Shown piece after piece: positions 6,691 to 13,872 of a stretch of DNA of 64,000 nucleotides. The stretch lies in assembly GCA_049678185.1 (NCBI GenBank), contig JBAUDS010000369.1, forward strand, positions 354 through 64,353. Reading direction: 5' to 3'. Position 1 is the stretch's first letter; every line of letters starts with the position of its first letter. Both the position numbers and the translations under genes were made by a program. The notes beneath the pieces were generated by a model. The model ran no database searches. It saw nothing but the letters and a program-made list of their open reading frames with translations, and was not told the DNA's origin. Source of the DNA: Thermoanaerobaculia bacterium (GTDB lineage: Bacteria > Acidobacteriota > Thermoanaerobaculia > Multivoradales > JAHEKO01).

Positions 6691-8322
6691 CTATACCTCG
6701 TCCATATGGGGATAAGAAAAGTCAGTCGGCGGCACGAAGTTCTCTTTCATCGACCGCAGTGAGGTCCAGCGCATCAGGTTGAGCATGGAACCCGCCTTGT
6801 CGTTGGTCCCCGAGGCCCGGGAGCCGCCAAAGGGCTGCTGCCCCACCACCGCTCCGGTCGGTTTGTCGTTGATGTAGAAGTTTCCCGCGGAGTGGCGAAG
6901 AGCTGCAGCGAGTTTGACGATGACGGAACGATCCTGGGCGAACACGGCCCCGGTCAAAGCATAAGGGCTGGTCGTGTCGCAAAGCTCCAGGGTCTCATCC
7001 ACGCGATCATCGTCGTACACATAGATGGTGAGGATGGGTGCAAAGATCTCCTCCCGCATGAGCTTGGATCGTGGATCCTCCGAAAGAACGACCGTGGGCT
7101 CCAAAAAGTAGCCTTCGGATTTGTCTCCGCTGCCACCGCAGACGATCTCGAAACCGGTCGAGCCCGTCGCGTGCTCGATGTAGCTCATGGCGTTGTCGAA
7201 CGACTTCTCGTCGATTACGGCACACATGAAATTGCGAAAGTCGAGAGGCGATCCCATGCGGATGCGCCCCACATCCTGTTCCAACCCACTTCGCACCTCG
7301 GGCCAGAGCGATTTTGGGATGTAAGCGCGGGAGGCAGCCGAACACTTCTGCCCCTGGTACTCGAAGGCTCCCCGCACCAGGGCGGTAACCAGCGACTTCA
7401 CGTCGGCCGAGGGATGCGCAAAGACGAAATCCTTGCCACCGGTCTCACCCACGATTCGAGGATAGGTGTTGTAGGAAGCCAGATTCTCGCCGATCTGTCT
7501 CCACATCGCCTGAAAGGTGGAAGTCGAGCCGGTGAAGTGGATTCCCGCCAGCTCGGGTCTGACGAGGACGGGATCGCCGACCTGCGCCCCCTTCCCCGGC
7601 AAGAAGTTGATCACCCCCGGAGGCAGACCGGCGGCTTCCAACAGCTTCATGATGTAGTAGCCGGACAGCAGGGAAGTCGAGGCGGGCTTCCACAGTACCG
7701 TGTTCCCCATCAAGGCCGGCGCCGTGGGCAGGTTGCCGGCGATGGAGGTGAAGTTGAAGGGGGTGACCGCAAAGACAACCCCCTCCAGGGCCCGGTACTC
7801 GACGTAGTCCCAGATCCCGGGTGCGGATCCCGGCTGCTCGCTGTACAGCTGTCGCATGTAGTAGGGGTTGAAGCGCCAGAAATCGACCAGCTCGCAGGCC
7901 GAGTCGATCTCCGCTTGGAAGACCGTCTTCGACTGGTCGAGCATGGTGGCGGCGTTGAGAGTATCCCGCCAGGGACCGGCCAACAGATCGGCGGCCTTGA
8001 GGAATACCGCGGCTCTCGCCTCCCAGTCCATCTCGGACCACTCCGTCCAGGCAGCGGCAGCGGCCTCGACCGCCCGATTCACTTCCTCGGGACCCGCCTG
8101 GTGCACCTCGGCCAGGACATGACCGTGGTCGTGGGGACAGACAGCGGTGGTCGTTTTGCCGGTGCGGATCTCCTCTCCACCGACGATGACCGGCACCTCC
8201 ACCTGCTCGTCCATCATCTCCTGCAGCCGCTTCTTCAGCGAAGTCTTCTCGGAGGTCCCCGGGGAGTAGGGCTGAATGGGTTCGTTGGTCGGCTCCGGAA
8301 CGCTCACGATGCCAATTGCCAT
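6691..8322 (-). CDS. pruA: L-glutamate gamma-semialdehyde (delta-1-pyrroline-5-carboxylate) dehydrogenase, ALDH4 type.
   Basis: Aldehyde dehydrogenase superfamily with the ALDH4/P5CDH-specific N-terminus ([17 protein letters not shown]...), VGETGGKDF, catalytic Cys in [10 protein letters not shown], and EIFAPIL. GGAGA Shine-Dalgarno before the ATG at 8322. Confidence 0.85.
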
Positions 8323-8429
8323 CGAAGAATCTCCTTTTTTTGTAGATTGCCGGATACGCTCGGTCCAGCATTCACCGGCCGGTTGATGCTATCCGGCGCG
8401 GCCCGGCGAAGCAACGGTGAAGAGTCGGT

Positions 8430-8798
8430 TCAGAGGCGGAAGGCTGTCCAGGCGAACAGCAGAAATCCGGCGATCAGAAGCACACCGCCGAGGGGAGTCA
8501 CGGCCCCCAGCCAGCGGGGCGCCCCGAGGGCCAGGGCCGCCACGGTCCCAGAGAAGACAACCGCACCGACGAGAAGACTCCAAGCGGCCCCTTCGAACCC
8601 CGGACGTGGCCAGGTGCGACCCACAATCCCCAAGAGAGTCATCCCGAAACCACCATACATGGCATACCGAGCCGCCGTCTCCCAAAGCGCCAACGCCCGC
8701 TCGTCCAGCCTCTCGGCAAGACCATGCGCGCCAAACGCACCCGCCCCCACAGCCAGCGCACACATCAGTGGACCAATAAACAGAGCTGCGCTTTGCAT
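8430..8798 (-). CDS. DUF423 (YgdD/TMEM256 family) small membrane protein.
   Basis: 122 aa with 3-4 TM helices and the conserved GAFGAHGL ... YAMYGGFG motifs. Confidence 0.75.
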   Translation of the reverse strand: MQSAALFIGPLMCALAVGAGAFGAHGLAERLDERALALWETAARYAMYGGFGMTLLGIVGRTWPRPGFEGAAWSLLVGAVVFSGTVAALALGAPRWLGAVTPLGGVLLIAGFLLFAWTAFRL

Positions 8799-8870
8799 GA
8801 AACCCTCCAGACTTTGGGACCTCGAGCCCCCGAAGCGGCCAGCCTCCGTGCCGGCCGGATCCCCAAGCCC

Positions 8871-9149
8871 TTACTCCCCCACCTCCACCAGCGGATAGAT
8901 CTTCTTCACTTTTCCCTGCGCAATCACCAACCGGTCGTACTTCTTCCACACTCCAAACTCCGCCGCCCGCTGCAGATACTCTTCGTTCGAGCGACCCTCC
9001 TCACCCTCTTCATGGCCATCGGCATCGAGGAGGATCAATCCGCGCTCGGTCCGCTCGTCGAAGCGCCCGACGAACACCTCCGGACCATCGGTCTCCACGA
9101 CCACCGTAATGCCGTGGAGCTCGCCTTTGTCGTCGTGAAATGTGCCCAT
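8871..9149 (-). CDS. Hypothetical small acidic protein (92 aa).
   Basis: Genome-typical codon usage. Sits immediately downstream of, and contiguous with, the bacilliredoxin-like gene (1 nt gap). No recognisable domain. Confidence 0.4.
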   Translation of the reverse strand: MGTFHDDKGELHGITVVVETDGPEVFVGRFDERTERGLILLDADGHEEGEEGRSNEEYLQRAAEFGVWKKYDRLVIAQGKVKKIYPLVEVGE

Positions 9150-9584
9150 TCAGGAGGTCGCGACCGCGGCAAAATACCGATCAAAAGCGGCGGTCAGATC
9201 GCCCGCCACATCTTCTGCGCTACGGCTCTCGATCCGGTGCCGCGGCACGAAATACACCAGCTCGCCATCTTTGAATAGCGCAATGGAAGGGCTCGACGGC
9301 GGGATGTCGGCGAAGAGATTCCGCGCCCGGGCGGTAGCCTCCACCTCCTGACCGGCAAAGACCGTCAACAGACGATCGGGTTTGACACTGTGCTGGAGTG
9401 CCATCCGGATCCCGGGCCGTGCCTGGCCTGCAGCACAGCCACAGACCGAATTGATGACCAGAATGGCCGTTCCGTTCTTGTCCGCCATGACACGGTCGAC
9501 GTCCTCAGCGGTGAGCAACTCGTCGAAGCCCAGACTGGTGAGCTCCTCCTTCATCGGTTTGACCATGATTGGACTGTATGGCAC
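9150..9584 (-). CDS. BrxA/BrxB (YphP/YqiW, DUF1094) bacilliredoxin-family thiol-disulfide oxidoreductase.
   Basis: 144 aa with LVINSVCGCAAG, the CGC redox motif and surrounding sequence characteristic of the bacilliredoxin family. Confidence 0.7.
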   Translation of the reverse strand: MPYSPIMVKPMKEELTSLGFDELLTAEDVDRVMADKNGTAILVINSVCGCAAGQARPGIRMALQHSVKPDRLLTVFAGQEVEATARARNLFADIPPSSPSIALFKDGELVYFVPRHRIESRSAEDVAGDLTAAFDRYFAAVATS

Positions 9585-9723
9585 GTATATCTCTCCTTGA
9601 TTCTCAGATTCTCGATCTGACCACCTGCGTCACAAGTGCAAGGCGGTGGAAGTTGGCAGACATTGTACGACATTCCTGGGCTGGTAGACTGCGACAGGTT
9701 TTCCGGGCCGGAGCTTCGAAGCC

Positions 9724-10503
9724 ATGCCGCTCAGCGGACAGAGACTTCTCACCATCACGACTGCTCTCATCGCTTGCGTTGCGCTTGGCTGCGGCACGGT
9801 CCCGGTGAGCGCCGACTCCACCCCTCTGCCCCTCCAGATCCCCAGGGACCGACCCCTGCGTGCCGGATTCTTGATCGTCGACGGGGTCTACAACACCGAG
9901 CTGACGGCTCCCTACGACGTCTTTCAGCACACCAGTGCACATTTGGGCGCGGGGTCCGGCATCGAAGTTTTTACCGTCTCACCGGATGGAGGCGAGGTGA
10001 CCACCGCCGAGGGACTTCGGATCGTCCCGCACTACAGCTTCGAGACCGCTCCCCCGATCGATATTCTCGTTGTGCCTAGCGGCGAGCACAGCCGGGACGC
10101 CGACAGACAGAACCGGGACCTCATCCAATGGGTGAGCAAGACCGGCGCGCAGGCACACTTTGTCGTCTCCCTGTGTTGGGGAGCCTTTATCTTGGCCGAG
10201 GCCGGACTACTGGACGGCCACTCGTGCACCACCTTCCCCGGTGACTACCGACCCTTCGCCGAGGCCTTTCCCGACCTGGATCTCCGCATCAACGTCACTT
10301 TTGTCCACGACGGCCGCGTGCTGACCTCCGAGGGAGGCGCCCACAGCTACGACGTGGCCATGTACCTGGTGGATCTGCTGTTTGGAGAAGAAGTCGCGAA
10401 GGGGATCGGTCAGGGGTTGCTGATCCCGTGGCCTCCCACCGGCGGTGTACGGCCCGCCTACGTCACCGATCCTGGCATGTCTCTCAAAAGATCGACCGAG
10501 TGA
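9724..10503 (+). CDS. DJ-1/PfpI family protein (class I glutamine amidotransferase-like fold), probably a lipoprotein.
   Basis: Signal peptide with lipobox-like LIACVALGCG. DJ-1/PfpI core (ILVVPSGE...HFVVSLCWGAFILAEAGLLDGHSCTTFP) with the nucleophile-elbow Cys (SLCWGA). Confidence 0.8.
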   Translation: MPLSGQRLLTITTALIACVALGCGTVPVSADSTPLPLQIPRDRPLRAGFLIVDGVYNTELTAPYDVFQHTSAHLGAGSGIEVFTVSPDGGEVTTAEGLRIVPHYSFETAPPIDILVVPSGEHSRDADRQNRDLIQWVSKTGAQAHFVVSLCWGAFILAEAGLLDGHSCTTFPGDYRPFAEAFPDLDLRINVTFVHDGRVLTSEGGAHSYDVAMYLVDLLFGEEVAKGIGQGLLIPWPPTGGVRPAYVTDPGMSLKRSTE

Positions 10504-10598
10504 TGACCGGATTCATCGCCGTCATGTTCATCCTCCCGGTCGCCATCGTCGTCGCGGCGATCGTCCTCGGTCGACGCGCCGGCTCATGGAAGAACTAG
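10503..10598 (+). CDS. Micro-ORF encoding a 31-aa single-TM peptide (MTGFIAVMFILPVAIVVAAIVLGRRAGSWKN). Possible small accessory subunit of the downstream symporter.
   Basis: Its ATG overlaps the DJ-1 stop by 1 nt (TGATG). Its TAG stop lies 10 nt inside the symporter start, in a different frame (ATG 10586). The peptide is a hydrophobic helix followed by a basic tail. Support is positional only. Confidence 0.35.
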   Translation: MTGFIAVMFILPVAIVVAAIVLGRRAGSWKN

Positions 10599-12103
10599 CC
10601 ACAACCGAGGTCGTGCTCGACAGCACGGCCTTGGTGAGTTTTGTCGCCTACCTGGTGGTAGTCGTGGCCATCGGCGTCTATGCCACCCGCTTCGCCTCTT
10701 CGGGACTCGGCGAGTTCTTCGTCGGCGGCCGCCAGATGAACCGCTTCGTCGTCGCCCTCTCGGCGGTGGTGTCCGGACGCAGTGCCTGGCTTCTTCTTGG
10801 TGTCACCGGCATGGCCTACCAGATCGGAGCCTCGGCCGTTTGGGCGGTGACCGGTTACATCGTCGCCGAGCTCCTGATGTTTCTCTACTATGCCGGTCGG
10901 CTGAGAAGGTTTAGCGAGGCCTACGATTGCATCACCATTCCCGACTTTTTCGCCGCTCGGTTCAACGACACATTCGGCGTGCTGCGCATACCGTTGGTGG
11001 CCATCATCCTGGTATTCATGGTGAGCTACGTCGCGGCTCAGTTCGTCGCCGGTGGTAAGGCTTTCACTGCGAGCTTTGGCCTCAGCAACACCAGCGGTCT
11101 TCTGCTGACGGCAGCCATCGTTCTCATCTACACGGTGCTGGGTGGCTTTCTCGCGGTCAGCCTCACCGACGTGCTCCAGGCCCTGTTCATGATCGTGGCT
11201 TTGGTGCTCCTGCCGCTGGTGGCTATCGTAAGTCGGGGTGGGCTGAGGGCCGTAATCGACCAGCTCGCGGCGCTCGACCCGACCATGATCGATCCGTTCA
11301 CCCTGTCGGCGGGTGCTCTTGTCGGCTTTCTCGGTATCGGCCTCGGCTCGCCGGGCAATCCCCACATTCTGGTGCGTTATATGTCGATTCGCGACCCCGA
11401 GCAGCTGCGCTTCTCGGCGGTGGTGGGAACGGTCTGGAACGTGGTGATGGCGTGGGGCGCTCTCTTTATCGGACTCGTGGGCCGGGTCTACTTTCCGATC
11501 CCCGATCTCCTCCCCGCGGGCGATGCCGAGAACCTCTACGTAGCCCTCGCCAGGCAGCAGCTCCACCCGATCCTCCTCGGACTGGTGATTGCGTCCATCT
11601 TTGCCGCCATCATGTCGACCGCCGACTCCCAGCTTCTGGTTGCCGCTTCGAGCATCGTCCGCGACCTCTATCAGAAGGTCTTTCGCCGCGGCCGGGAGTT
11701 GTCCTCTCGGCGGCTGGTGATCTACAGCCGGGTGGTGGTCGTTCTGCTGGTGCTCTTGGCGCTGCTCTTTGGATACCTGGCCCACGACCTGGTCTTCTGG
11801 CTGGTGCTCTTTGCCTGGGCGGGTCTCGGCGCCGCCATCGGTCCCACTTCCATTCTCGCGCTCTACTGGCGCCGGACCACCCGCGCGGGCGTCTTGGCAG
11901 GTCTTCTCGCCGCCACTGCCGTCACCTTCATCTGGCGAGCGGACGATAGTCTCAACGACTCGCTCTATGTGCTCATTCCGGGCTTCTTGGCAGCCTTTGT
12001 GGCGACCGTCGTGGTGAGCCTCGTCACAGAACCGCCGGACGACGCCGATGAGATGCTCGACAGGATGACCGACTCGGGCGAGGGAAAGCGACGCCCGGGG
12101 TGA
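10586..12103 (+). CDS. putP: Sodium:solute symporter family transporter, PutP-like Na+/proline symporter.
   Basis: 505 aa with about 13 TM segments. The SSS-family signature region (GRQMNRFVVALSAVVSGRSAWLLLGVTGMAYQIG) resembles PutP. Confidence 0.75.
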   Translation: MEELATTEVVLDSTALVSFVAYLVVVVAIGVYATRFASSGLGEFFVGGRQMNRFVVALSAVVSGRSAWLLLGVTGMAYQIGASAVWAVTGYIVAELLMFLYYAGRLRRFSEAYDCITIPDFFAARFNDTFGVLRIPLVAIILVFMVSYVAAQFVAGGKAFTASFGLSNTSGLLLTAAIVLIYTVLGGFLAVSLTDVLQALFMIVALVLLPLVAIVSRGGLRAVIDQLAALDPTMIDPFTLSAGALVGFLGIGLGSPGNPHILVRYMSIRDPEQLRFSAVVGTVWNVVMAWGALFIGLVGRVYFPIPDLLPAGDAENLYVALARQQLHPILLGLVIASIFAAIMSTADSQLLVAASSIVRDLYQKVFRRGRELSSRRLVIYSRVVVVLLVLLALLFGYLAHDLVFWLVLFAWAGLGAAIGPTSILALYWRRTTRAGVLAGLLAATAVTFIWRADDSLNDSLYVLIPGFLAAFVATVVVSLVTEPPDDADEMLDRMTDSGEGKRRPG

Positions 12104-12117
12104 TGGGAGACGGGCTA

Positions 12118-13872
12118 CTACCGTTTGGCGAAATAGACTTGCAGGCGTGAGCCCTGCGGCGTCATATCTCGGACATAGACATCGGCGCCGGTAAGGTCGG
12201 CGACAACGTGGAGAACGCTGCCTTGCGGCTCCTTGTGCAAACCCGTGCGAATACGGTCGATGTGCGAGGTTCCCACATCCAAGGCCGATTCGTCCGGAGC
12301 CCGAGTCACGCCATAGACTTTGATGATGACCCGGGCGTCGTCGCCCTCGATACGCGACAGCTCGACCTGCCCTCCAACAACCACGTCATCGGTCCACAGC
12401 ATGAGAAGAGTTTCACCACCCAACTCCTCCCAGGAGATGCGCTCGACACGCGACAGCTTGCTGACAACCGGTACCACTTCTCGCCTCTCCGTCGGTGCCG
12501 GCGCAACCGGCGGCGTCTCCGTCGCGGCCGTCGACGGAGAAGTCGAGTCGACCTGGGCTTCTTCGGCAGCTGACTCTTCAATCGGTGGCAGCGGCTCGAG
12601 CGGGGCAGAGACCTCCACCTCGGACTCGCCCTCGATAAAGGAGGCGACACTGGACGTCAACACCTCGACATACGGCTGGAGCAGACCCATGTAGTAGGCA
12701 TAGCCTGCGGCTCCCGCGAGGATCGCCACTACCAACAACAGGAACAACCCGCGTCCGGATCTCCGCTTCGTGCTGTGGGTTCCCAGCGACGGCTCCGACT
12801 CCGCCATTCCCATGTCGGTCTCGCCGACCGCTCCGGTCTCATCCGGCCACTTCAGGGCACCGGAAGCGACCACCAGCTCATCGGGCACGGGTACGTCGGC
12901 GAGCTCCTCGGTGAACCGGATTTCGGGGACACGGGGAACCGTTGGCGGCGGCTCGAAGCTGGTCGTCGGTGGCGGACTGATCGCAACCGGTTCCTCCCAC
13001 CGAACATCCTCGCTGTCCGTGGGAGCCACATCCATGCCGCCGATCTCCGGCAGCTCCACCCGTGGCGGCTCGGGCAGGGGCGGTTGTGACTCGACAGGCG
13101 GCAGATCCAGGATGGAGATTTCCGGCTCGGCGAACAAAGACTCGGCTGGAGGACCGGCGTCGAGGTCATCGGGCGGCGTGACCAGAGTCGGGGGGCTTAC
13201 CTCATCCACATTCTCAAAGCTCTGTTCCGGCAGTGACGTCGACGGCGGTGGGATCGCAACATCGTAAGGTGGTGTGACCAGGGTCGGGGGACTGGCCTCA
13301 TCCATATCCAACAAGCTCTGATCCGACGGCGGCACGGGTTCCGGTTCGGGTGGCCGTACTTCCTGACGCACGCTCGCTTCGATCTCTGCCAACTCGGGAA
13401 TCTCTTGCTCGAGACCCCCGGTGGCATCCGCTTCGATCTCCACCGGGGCCGCCTCGGTGACTGCGGGAGCCGGTTTTTCGAGAACAAACAGGGTCTCGCC
13501 CTGGCGGCGGTGGCTGTCGACGACCTTGGCCAGCAACCGCTGGCCGGGTTCATCGAGGTCCTGGAAGCGAATCGACATCCCCTCCGGCGACTGACCCGCC
13601 GCGAATTCGCGCACGGCCACTACCTCCGCCTCACCCTGCATGAGCTGAAAGCCGTCGGCAATCCTCAATACGAAGCTGAGTCTCGAGCCCGCGGCCTTGG
13701 GGGTCTGGACCTCGACAAACATGCCCTCCTCGGAGAGGGTCGAGACGCTCAGATTGATGAATTCCCTGAAGCTCGGGTACTCCACGACCAGCTGTCGGTC
13801 GCTGAGAGTCACTACTGGCGCGGCGTTCGAATCACCTGTGGCCATCGGGTTCTCGTTTACCTCTGTCGACAT
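12118..13872 (-). CDS. PilZ-domain membrane protein with a proline-rich tandem-repeat linker, one TM helix and a C-terminal AMIN-like domain.
   Basis: N-terminal PilZ-like fold (VVTLSDRQLVVEYP...NLSVSTLSEEGMFVEV...GMSIRFQDLDEPGQRLLAKVV). A Pro/Glu-rich region with near-identical repeats (EASPPTLVTPPYD / EVSPPTLVTPPDD). A TM segment (LFLLLVVAILAGAAGYAYYMGLL). A C-terminal beta-rich domain resembling AMIN (LLMLWTDDVVVGGQVELSRIEGDDARVIIKVYGV...VLHVVADLTGADVYV). Confidence 0.65.
   Translation of the reverse strand: MSTEVNENPMATGDSNAAPVVTLSDRQLVVEYPSFREFINLSVSTLSEEGMFVEVQTPKAAGSRLSFVLRIADGFQLMQGEAEVVAVREFAAGQSPEGMSIRFQDLDEPGQRLLAKVVDSHRRQGETLFVLEKPAPAVTEAAPVEIEADATGGLEQEIPELAEIEASVRQEVRPPEPEPVPPSDQSLLDMDEASPPTLVTPPYDVAIPPPSTSLPEQSFENVDEVSPPTLVTPPDDLDAGPPAESLFAEPEISILDLPPVESQPPLPEPPRVELPEIGGMDVAPTDSEDVRWEEPVAISPPPTTSFEPPPTVPRVPEIRFTEELADVPVPDELVVASGALKWPDETGAVGETDMGMAESEPSLGTHSTKRRSGRGLFLLLVVAILAGAAGYAYYMGLLQPYVEVLTSSVASFIEGESEVEVSAPLEPLPPIEESAAEEAQVDSTSPSTAATETPPVAPAPTERREVVPVVSKLSRVERISWEELGGETLLMLWTDDVVVGGQVELSRIEGDDARVIIKVYGVTRAPDESALDVGTSHIDRIRTGLHKEPQGSVLHVVADLTGADVYVRDMTPQGSRLQVYFAKR

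Follow-up and report, generated by a model that had tools for sequence, protein, structure and literature searches.

A conserved single-helix peptide encoded at the start of PutP-like Na+/solute symporter genes: a candidate accessory subunit in one symporter subclade

Single-transmembrane (single-TM) peptides of 30-50 amino acids modulate or stabilise several large transporters, as in the pairs AcrZ-AcrB, KdpF-KdpABC and MgtS-MgtA. In the SSS family of Na+/solute symporters, the small proteins encoded beside transporter genes include DUF4212 proteins, of about 80 amino acids, and DUF485 proteins, of about 100 amino acids, both with two TM helices. DUF485 and DUF4212 proteins are encoded upstream of SSS transporters, and fitness data indicate that they are required (bioRxiv 10.1101/072470). 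The single TM helix of MAP17 binds TM13 of human SGLT2 (PMC10803289). In Pseudomonas putida, cbrX and the SSS-domain gene cbrA share 17 nucleotides, read in different frames; translational coupling of the two has been shown experimentally, and a frame-restored scrambled CbrX peptide still supported CbrA synthesis (PMC6591292). The subject of this report is a 31-codon open reading frame (ORF), here called the micro-ORF, that overlaps the start of a PutP-like SSS symporter gene in DNA from a Thermoanaerobaculia bacterium (GenBank assembly GCA_049678185.1, contig JBAUDS010000369.1, positions 354 to 64,353 of the forward strand); this whole stretch of 64,000 nucleotides is referred to as the window. 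Comparison across genomes and metagenomes indicates that the micro-ORF is a real gene, and that its single-pass product is probably a translationally coupled accessory subunit of one PutP-like SSS subclade.

Neither Pfam nor NCBIfam has a model that matches the window peptide, any of 10 diverse family members or the 37 members of the family alignment, and no PDB chain matches the peptide sequence. Neither the peptide family nor a single-TM partner for PutP-like SSS proteins is described in the literature searched. An NCBIfam label, 'symporter small accessory protein', was considered as a candidate name and was rejected, there being no NCBIfam match in 47 scans of family members and no use of the phrase in the literature searched. 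DUF4212 (TIGR03647) proteins resemble the window peptide in that they are small, hydrophobic and encoded immediately upstream of an SSS transporter. However, the peptide has no hidden Markov model (HMM) match to this family, is only 31 amino acids long with one TM helix, and accompanies a transporter of a different clade, as the window symporter scores 113 bits on the VC_2705-type model TIGR03648 against a cutoff of 320.75. DUF485 (YjcH), the companion of ActP, is likewise a small membrane protein that is co-operonic and cofit with an SSS permease and has been proposed as a transporter component, but its sequence is unrelated and its partner is of the ActP type, whereas the window symporter reaches only 63-84 bits on ActP models. 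DUF485 and DUF997 (YhdT), the small partners of ActP and PanF, are described as two-TM proteins of about 80-100 amino acids, in contrast to the 28-39 amino acids and single core found here, and neither gives a Pfam match. The sequence-only reading of this locus had likened the peptide to the small proteins of SSS/ActP transporters; the comparison stands as an analogy, but does not extend to homology with DUF485, DUF4212 or DUF997.

The remaining described systems are also similar in kind but not in sequence. MAP17 (PDZK1IP1), which associates with SGLT2 and SGLT1, is a single-TM accessory protein on the lipid-facing surface of an SSS/SLC5 transporter; however, it is eukaryotic, unrelated in sequence (no Pfam or PDB match) and not operon-encoded. 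CbrX is the product of a small hydrophobic ORF directly upstream of, and overlapping, an SSS-type membrane domain, although it has 58 amino acids and two predicted helices, is found in Pseudomonadaceae only, and precedes a sensor kinase (PMC6591292). AcrZ, KdpF and MgtS belong with other transporter superfamilies and are not homologous to the window peptide. On the best reading of these comparisons, the peptide would be a new, non-homologous variant among the small accessory subunits of SSS transporters, a functional kind that is already known.

The micro-ORF (MTGFIAVMFILPVAIVVAAIVLGRRAGSWKN, 10503-10598, plus strand) encodes a 31-amino acid, single-TM peptide of an undescribed family and ends with a TAG stop at 10596-10598. 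Its ATG (10503-10505) overlaps by one base the TGA (10501-10503) of a DJ-1/PfpI-family gene (9724-10503, plus strand, 259 amino acids), giving a TGATG junction at 10501-10505, and in this lineage the chain opens with the DJ-1 cistron. At its other end, the micro-ORF overlaps the gene for the PutP-like SSS Na+/solute symporter (10586-12103, plus strand, 505 amino acids, 13 predicted TM helices) by 13 nucleotides including the TAG (10586-10598), with no Shine-Dalgarno (SD) sequence before the symporter ATG. On re-reading of the sequence, the coordinates and the stop/start chaining of the three genes given in the sequence-only reading proved exact; the 10 nucleotides that it placed inside the symporter ORF are sense codons, to which the stop adds three. 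Its assignment of the flanking genes to DJ-1 and Na+/solute symporters was also correct (PF01965, 79.6 bits, cutoff 26.6; PF00474, 262.2 bits, cutoff 22.8). The symporter start at 10586 (MEEL...) matches the MQE... N-terminus of homologues and the gene calls of near relatives. In its own frame the micro-ORF has a GC content at third codon positions of 0.875, similar to that of neighbouring genes; in near relatives it is called as a gene by gene callers, and the TGATG junction with the DJ-1 gene is repeated. Seventy ORFs of at least 20 amino acids overlap this 5-kb stretch of 65% GC DNA. A 31-codon ORF alone is no better than chance in DNA of this composition, and the evidence for a gene must therefore come from conservation. 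Two long antisense ORFs, one of 396 amino acids opposite the symporter gene (10595-11785, minus strand) and one of 668 amino acids (6892-8898, plus strand) opposite a gene for L-glutamate gamma-semialdehyde (P5C) dehydrogenase, are both typical of high-GC DNA and almost certainly not genes, and are a reminder that ORF length by itself is uninformative here. No sigma-70-like promoter match was found in 9300-12400, so the operon boundaries rest on gene orientation only.

To examine the conservation of the peptide, 80 genomic loci, one per species, were fetched using an alignment of 27 symporter homologues and two amino acid patterns, one of which was WNV[VL]MAWG. At most loci with a symporter at least about 50% identical to the query, a small hydrophobic ORF that stops at the symporter start or a few bases past it carries the recurring core M..F[YF]L.MF.LP.AII..A..LA. 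A profile made from 16 peptides was searched against 19,304 six-frame open stretches, taken from the 80 loci and the whole 64-kb window, and gave 41 matches (expect value (E) from 4e-16 to 0.1), all of them on the symporter strand and all ending at the symporter start. The window peptide matches the seed profile at E = 8e-14. Away from the symporter start, none of the 19,304 stretches matched better than E of about 0.26, and a search with a refined HMM brought up no stray or additional peptide copies in the loci and window. The 41 family members are 28-39 amino acids long and start with ATG, apart from two that start with GTG. Record titles assign them to Gemmatimonadota, Thermoanaerobaculia, Aminicenantes, Balneolales/Bacteroidota, Clostridia/Eubacteriales, Phycisphaerales and Caldithrix; Rhodohalobacter sp. 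8-1 (locus L022) and Caldithrix abyssi are among the carriers. The sequence-only reading had held the peptide to be real, and would have counted this refuted had the small ORF (its frame or hydrophobic peptide) not been conserved ahead of orthologous symporters. Instead, the peptide, its position and the stop/start junction recur across several phyla, at 40 of the 65 ingroup genome loci, or at 41 when the divergent copy at locus L060 is included.

Two residues are invariant in the family, and in the window they fall in codons 12-15 of the micro-ORF (P-V-A-I, 10536-10547, plus strand). The proline (Pro12 in the window) is found in 41/41 members and is encoded by CCG in 22, CCC in 14, CCT in 3 and CCA in 2, and the isoleucine (Ile15 in the window), also in 41/41, is encoded by ATC in 26, ATT in 11 and ATA in 4. 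A conserved leucine uses six codons, and the member genomes range from 38 to 70% GC. As proline, isoleucine and leucine are thus specified by all of their synonymous codons, selection acts on the protein and not on the DNA. The window peptide has the family characteristics of length, profile match, Pro-x-x-Ile and a basic tail (RRAGSWKN), and its stop overlaps the start of an SSS gene that carries Trp290, a symporter residue discussed below. The micro-ORF thus encodes a real protein, with purifying selection on its amino acid sequence in several phyla, and belongs to a peptide family, spread over several bacterial phyla, that was undescribed before.

Linkage to the symporter was also ascertained through the peptide. 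The whole-family alignment was too degenerate for a metagenome scan, and the divergent subfamily FAEIFGLFILPSAIILLS, represented by two loci in the genome set, was used. This peptide-first scan returned 50 loci with 31 distinct peptides. An intact symporter gene lies directly downstream on the same strand in 43 of the 50, a truncated remnant in three, and a contig end in four; the symporter start follows directly after the peptide in 46/46 loci with enough downstream sequence. The three loci with remnants, L118 (about 560-880), L123 and L126 (about 2600-2740), have an intact peptide ORF and a symporter N-terminus followed by a truncated gene. In L123 and L126 the symporter gene breaks off at one and the same point, about 30 codons in, and AT-rich sequence follows, perhaps through an insertion or a chimeric assembly; the truncation in L118 looks like an internal deletion. 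An exhaustive profile search of 1.84 billion cluster representatives gave 179 matches at E <= 1e-3. Nearly all of the best 150 of these are standalone proteins of 27-45 amino acids, and no symporter-length fusion is among them. Public copies of the peptide are unnamed or labelled 'hypothetical protein'. In a neighbour-joining tree of the symporters the peptide is confined to one subclade, where it is found on both deep branches, and it is absent from Bacteroidales, Planctomycetota, Balneola/Gracilimonas, some Gemmatimonadota/Longimicrobiales and the outgroup at 36-40% identity. The peptide gene is obligately linked to this one SSS symporter subclade.

The core of the peptides is uncharged, spans 18-28 residues (median 24) and has a mean hydropathy (GRAVY) of 2.3. 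Lysine and arginine together average 0.10 on the N-terminal side of the core versus 2.95 on the C-terminal side, and 40 of the 42 members follow this pattern. By the positive-inside rule, this asymmetry suggests a single-pass helix with an N-out/C-in orientation. The peptide is thus predicted to insert in the inner membrane with its short N-terminus outside and its basic tail in the cytoplasm.

The symporter is a member of the SSS family by TIGR00813 (240.9 bits, cutoff 184) as well as by PF00474. Its best specific model is TIGR02121 (PutP), hence the description PutP-like, although it does not reach PutP equivalog level (410.7 bits on TIGR02121 versus a cutoff of 515.5, and 283.5 on NF011948 versus 955). 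The AlphaFold2 (AF2) model of the symporter (predicted template modelling score (pTM) 0.80) has 13 TM helices and the LeuT-fold architecture. In a Foldseek search, the best structural matches to this model were SGLT1/2-MAP17, NIS, CHT1 and SiaT (TM-scores 0.75-0.83), the SGLT1/2-MAP17 complexes being its closest solved structures (TM-score about 0.82). The motif AIMSTADSQ is invariant in the 27 homologues, and its S344 and T345 may be the counterparts of S340 and T341 of Escherichia coli PutP, the Ser/Thr pair of the Na2 site on the 9th TM helix.

Whether a symporter is accompanied by the peptide co-varies with one face of its 8th TM helix, centred on a Trp. The strongest discriminating column in the symporter alignment is Trp290 (codon TGG at 11453-11455, plus strand), which is found in 40/40 loci with the peptide, in 2/25 ingroup loci without it and in 0/10 outgroup loci. 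Phe294 is found in 85% of peptide-bearing versus 12% of peptide-less ingroup symporters, and further discriminating columns in the same helix are 279, 283, 286, 297 and 301. The spacing of these columns at i+3/i+4 places them on one helix face. In the AF2 model, Trp290 lies in a continuous, confident helix of residues 271-302 (11396-11491, plus strand; predicted local distance difference test (pLDDT) 84-91), the 8th TM helix, which in the PutP-type topology is core helix 7 of the LeuT fold and a member of the four-helix bundle. Discriminating positions are also found in the third TM helix (V85, V88 and I92), core helix 2, which adjoins core helix 7 in the bundle.

The two peptide-less loci that score for Trp290 are informative individually. 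L060 has a divergent peptide, METFWVMLLLAPLGLVALAAFVSLRTGRTSEPSDG, with proline at the same position and a ATGGGTGA overlap. L020 is truly without the peptide and its symporter has its own SD; its sister L025 carries the peptide, suggesting a recent loss in L020. For a phylogenetic test of the association, a tree of 148 branches was built without residues 274-303. Eight parsimony changes, gains and losses together, were counted for the peptide and eight for Trp290, and seven of the eight are on shared branches (hypergeometric p = 2e-10); the W290/F294 face was lost along with the peptide on these 7/8 branches. Among the peptide-first metagenome loci that cover the position, Trp290 and Phe294 are both present in 33/33.

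The junction between peptide and symporter takes several forms across the family: overlaps of 1, 4, 8 or 13 nucleotides, in-frame copies split by a stop only, and gaps of up to 10 nucleotides. TGATG is typical of Gemmatimonadota, ATGA is found in Aminicenantes and Clostridia and ATGgATGA in Balneolales, and the 13-nucleotide overlap is that of the window lineage. In the Thermoanaerobaculia locus L005, the DJ-1 gene overlaps the micro-ORF through ATGA. Lineages differ in the frame of the peptide relative to that of the symporter, which rules out a mis-read N-terminal extension of the transporter. In lineages that use SD sequences, the micro-ORF is preceded by its own GGAGG, and the last codons of the peptide (RKGG, read from aggaagggagg, or KEEGE) double as the symporter SD. 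A symporter GGAGG within these codons is seen at loci L045, L048, L052, L054, L064, L066, L041 and L046. An RNA signal thus determines part of the C-terminal sequence of the peptide. No such signal precedes the symporter ATG in the window, where the micro-ORF is itself chained to the DJ-1 stop. The arrangement corresponds to that of CbrX in that a small ORF overlaps the start of an SSS gene in another frame, by 13 nucleotides here and 17 in cbrX.

Translational coupling of the peptide and the symporter is well supported by this geometry, from which we infer it. The stop/start overlap would couple translation such that peptide and transporter are synthesised from one mRNA, at comparable rates and at a single membrane site, and in the window the coupled chain would begin one gene earlier, at the putatively exported DJ-1-like protein. 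Six nucleotides past the micro-ORF stop, within symporter codons 7-17, there is a 14-bp hairpin, ACCGAGGTCGTGCT-CGAC-AGCACGGCCTTGGT, followed by GAGTTTTG (10604-10635, plus strand). Its core is kept in near relatives, and it might modulate reinitiation locally.

The proposal of an accessory subunit, which the sequence-only reading had raised as a possibility, gains independent support from the association with the Trp290 helix face; binding and function themselves we infer. The peptide helix would pack on a predicted lipid-facing surface formed by TM8 (W290/F294) and the neighbouring TM3 (V85/V88/I92), with the invariant Pro12 and Ile15 near mid-membrane, and would serve as a beta-subunit on which the transporter depends for its stability, assembly or activity. 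The candidate docking helix here is the 8th TM helix (core helix 7), as opposed to TM13 for MAP17. With 13 TM helices, the symporter has no equivalent of the MAP17-contacting TM13 of SGLT (SGLT numbering TM0-TM13, PMC10803289). The more specific form of the proposal, in which the peptide is an obligate beta-subunit that docks on TM8 through the Trp290 face and is an independently arisen bacterial counterpart of MAP17, has about an even chance of being right.

Several observations weigh against the subunit proposal or reduce the weight of its evidence. Many close relatives of the symporter (in Bacteroidales, Planctomycetota, Balneola and some Gemmatimonadota) are without the peptide, which is thus not universally required for this symporter fold. 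The symporter tree is from neighbour-joining only. Within the peptide-bearing set, no covariation signal was seen between individual residues of peptide and symporter; mutual information was dominated by phylogeny, and TM3/TM8 were not enriched (6% versus 9% background). Trp290 lies within the WNV[VL]MAWG pattern by which some loci were fetched, a bias that was controlled for but not eliminated. The test was for this reason rerun on loci found with the other pattern, independently of the Trp motif, where Trp290 is present in 35/35 peptide-bearing versus 1/24 peptide-less loci (Fisher 1.7e-15). Finally, among near relatives with flanking genes of 83-95% DNA identity, variable sites of the micro-ORF number 7/27, 4/27 and 11/26 at codon positions 1, 2 and 3; this test alone is weak and underpowered (Fisher p = 0.06), with a direction as for coding sequence.

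The main rival, which we consider improbable, is a micro-ORF of the CbrX type that serves for coupling only, its translation delivering ribosomes to the SD-less symporter start and the released peptide having no function. The lack of an SD before the ATG at 10586 and the conserved overlap geometry fit this explanation, as does a further point against a subunit role, namely that CbrX, the experimentally dissected case, requires translation but not the identity of the peptide (PMC6591292). Yet any open frame would suffice for coupling, whereas Pro-x-x-Ile, the core of 18-28 residues and the basic tail are conserved across phyla, and a symporter helix face is kept only together with the peptide. 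Peptide identity, reported to be dispensable in CbrX, is here strongly conserved and co-varies with the transporter. Coupling and a subunit function are, moreover, not mutually exclusive. A regulatory leader, in which translation of or stalling on the micro-ORF would switch a downstream RNA structure according to a substrate such as proline, is very unlikely. The hairpin just past the micro-ORF stop, with the GAGUUUUG that follows it at 10604-10635, and the invariant proline codon might be taken as attenuator features. However, the hairpin is within the symporter coding sequence, is not significant against shuffled sequences (z = -1.37), and is found in near relatives only, with no counterpart in other phyla. 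A single proline codon is untypical of attenuators, no Rfam match was found in 9300-12400, and a leader would have no need of a TM helix with positive-inside charges or of a co-varying transporter helix. An attenuator at 10604-10635 was accordingly rejected on its z score, its restriction to near relatives and the lack of an Rfam match.

Equally hard to credit is an independent small membrane protein, such as a membrane-active peptide or an aid to insertion or chaperoning, that travels in the operon without contacting the symporter. Many small hydrophobic proteins of bacteria are functionally unrelated to their neighbours, but this one is always at the symporter start (41/41 genome matches, 46/46 informative metagenome loci), is restricted to one symporter subclade, and disappears together with the W290/F294 face on seven of eight branches. 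The possibility of a chance ORF, or of a symporter N-terminal extension mis-annotated through a frameshift or fission artefact, is effectively refuted. Short ORFs are abundant in 65% GC DNA, but amino acid conservation across phyla with synonymous variation is not explained by chance, and an extension is contradicted both by the lineage-dependent frame and by the lack of a symporter-length fusion among the best 150 of the 179 profile matches. In addition, the first TM helix of a PutP-type protein is N-out, and a helix with the predicted N-out/C-in orientation could not lead straight into it.

The DJ-1 gene is found upstream of the micro-ORF only in near relatives (L081-L092, 85-92% amino acid identity) and in the Thermoanaerobaculia locus L005 (67%). 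Its link to the symporter is lineage-specific, and DJ-1 as a general partner of the symporter was rejected, as it is present only in the window lineage and L005. The nucleophile-elbow Cys motif SLCWGAF is kept in all DJ-1 relatives examined. The N-terminus has a putative signal peptide and a lipobox-like VALGC, and in a pattern check only, ...LIACVALGC|G fits relaxed lipobox rules; a signal-peptidase-I-like site (VSA before DS) follows the lipobox. The lipobox Cys is kept in 6/7 near relatives and in L005. In L081 (5222-5300; one of the L081-L084 group) it is replaced by Phe (VALGFG) and a signal-peptidase-I-type site (VGA before DS) remains, so lipoprotein status is not uniform among these proteins. 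Thus, the DJ-1 protein is likely to be exported, and its lipidation is plausible.

Beyond the DJ-1 gene, a divergent trio of genes at 9150-9584, 8871-9149 and 8430-8798 (all on the minus strand) remains syntenic with the operon in near relatives, and encodes a BrxA/BrxB-family bacilliredoxin (TIGR04191, 201 bits), a 92-amino acid protein of no family and a DUF423 membrane protein. No sigma-70-like promoter match was found in the intergenic region between the trio and the DJ-1 gene (9585-9723). On the other side, a convergent gene (12118-13872, minus strand) encodes a 584-amino acid protein that has a PilZ-like/TIGR02266 domain at its N-terminus and a long low-complexity middle rich in Pro and Glu; the stop of this gene is 14 nucleotides from the symporter stop, with no terminator-like site between them. 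The P5C dehydrogenase gene (6691-8322, minus strand; TIGR01236, 807 bits, cutoff 614) encodes the second enzyme of proline catabolism and lies opposite in strand to the PutP-like operon, 1.4 kb away, a synteny kept in near relatives L081, L084 and L088. PutP as the best HMM match and the nearby P5C dehydrogenase together give a hint of proline, and the substrate may tentatively be proline or a similar small amino acid.

Annotation routinely overlooks small membrane proteins. If the peptide is an accessory subunit, a PutP-like subclade common in Gemmatimonadota, Acidobacteriota, Balneolales and others is being annotated, and would be expressed and modelled, without a required partner; if it is an obligate beta-subunit, this subclade cannot be studied correctly when the transporter is expressed alone. 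In some lineages one sequence has two roles, the C-terminal codons of the peptide being also the symporter ribosome-binding site. The repeated joint loss of the peptide and the Trp face is a natural experiment. Pro12 and Ile15 of the peptide and Trp290 and Phe294 of the transporter form a testable pair, the latter two on a bundle helix that stays fixed during alternating access, and may thus show how single-TM partners tune LeuT-fold transporters.

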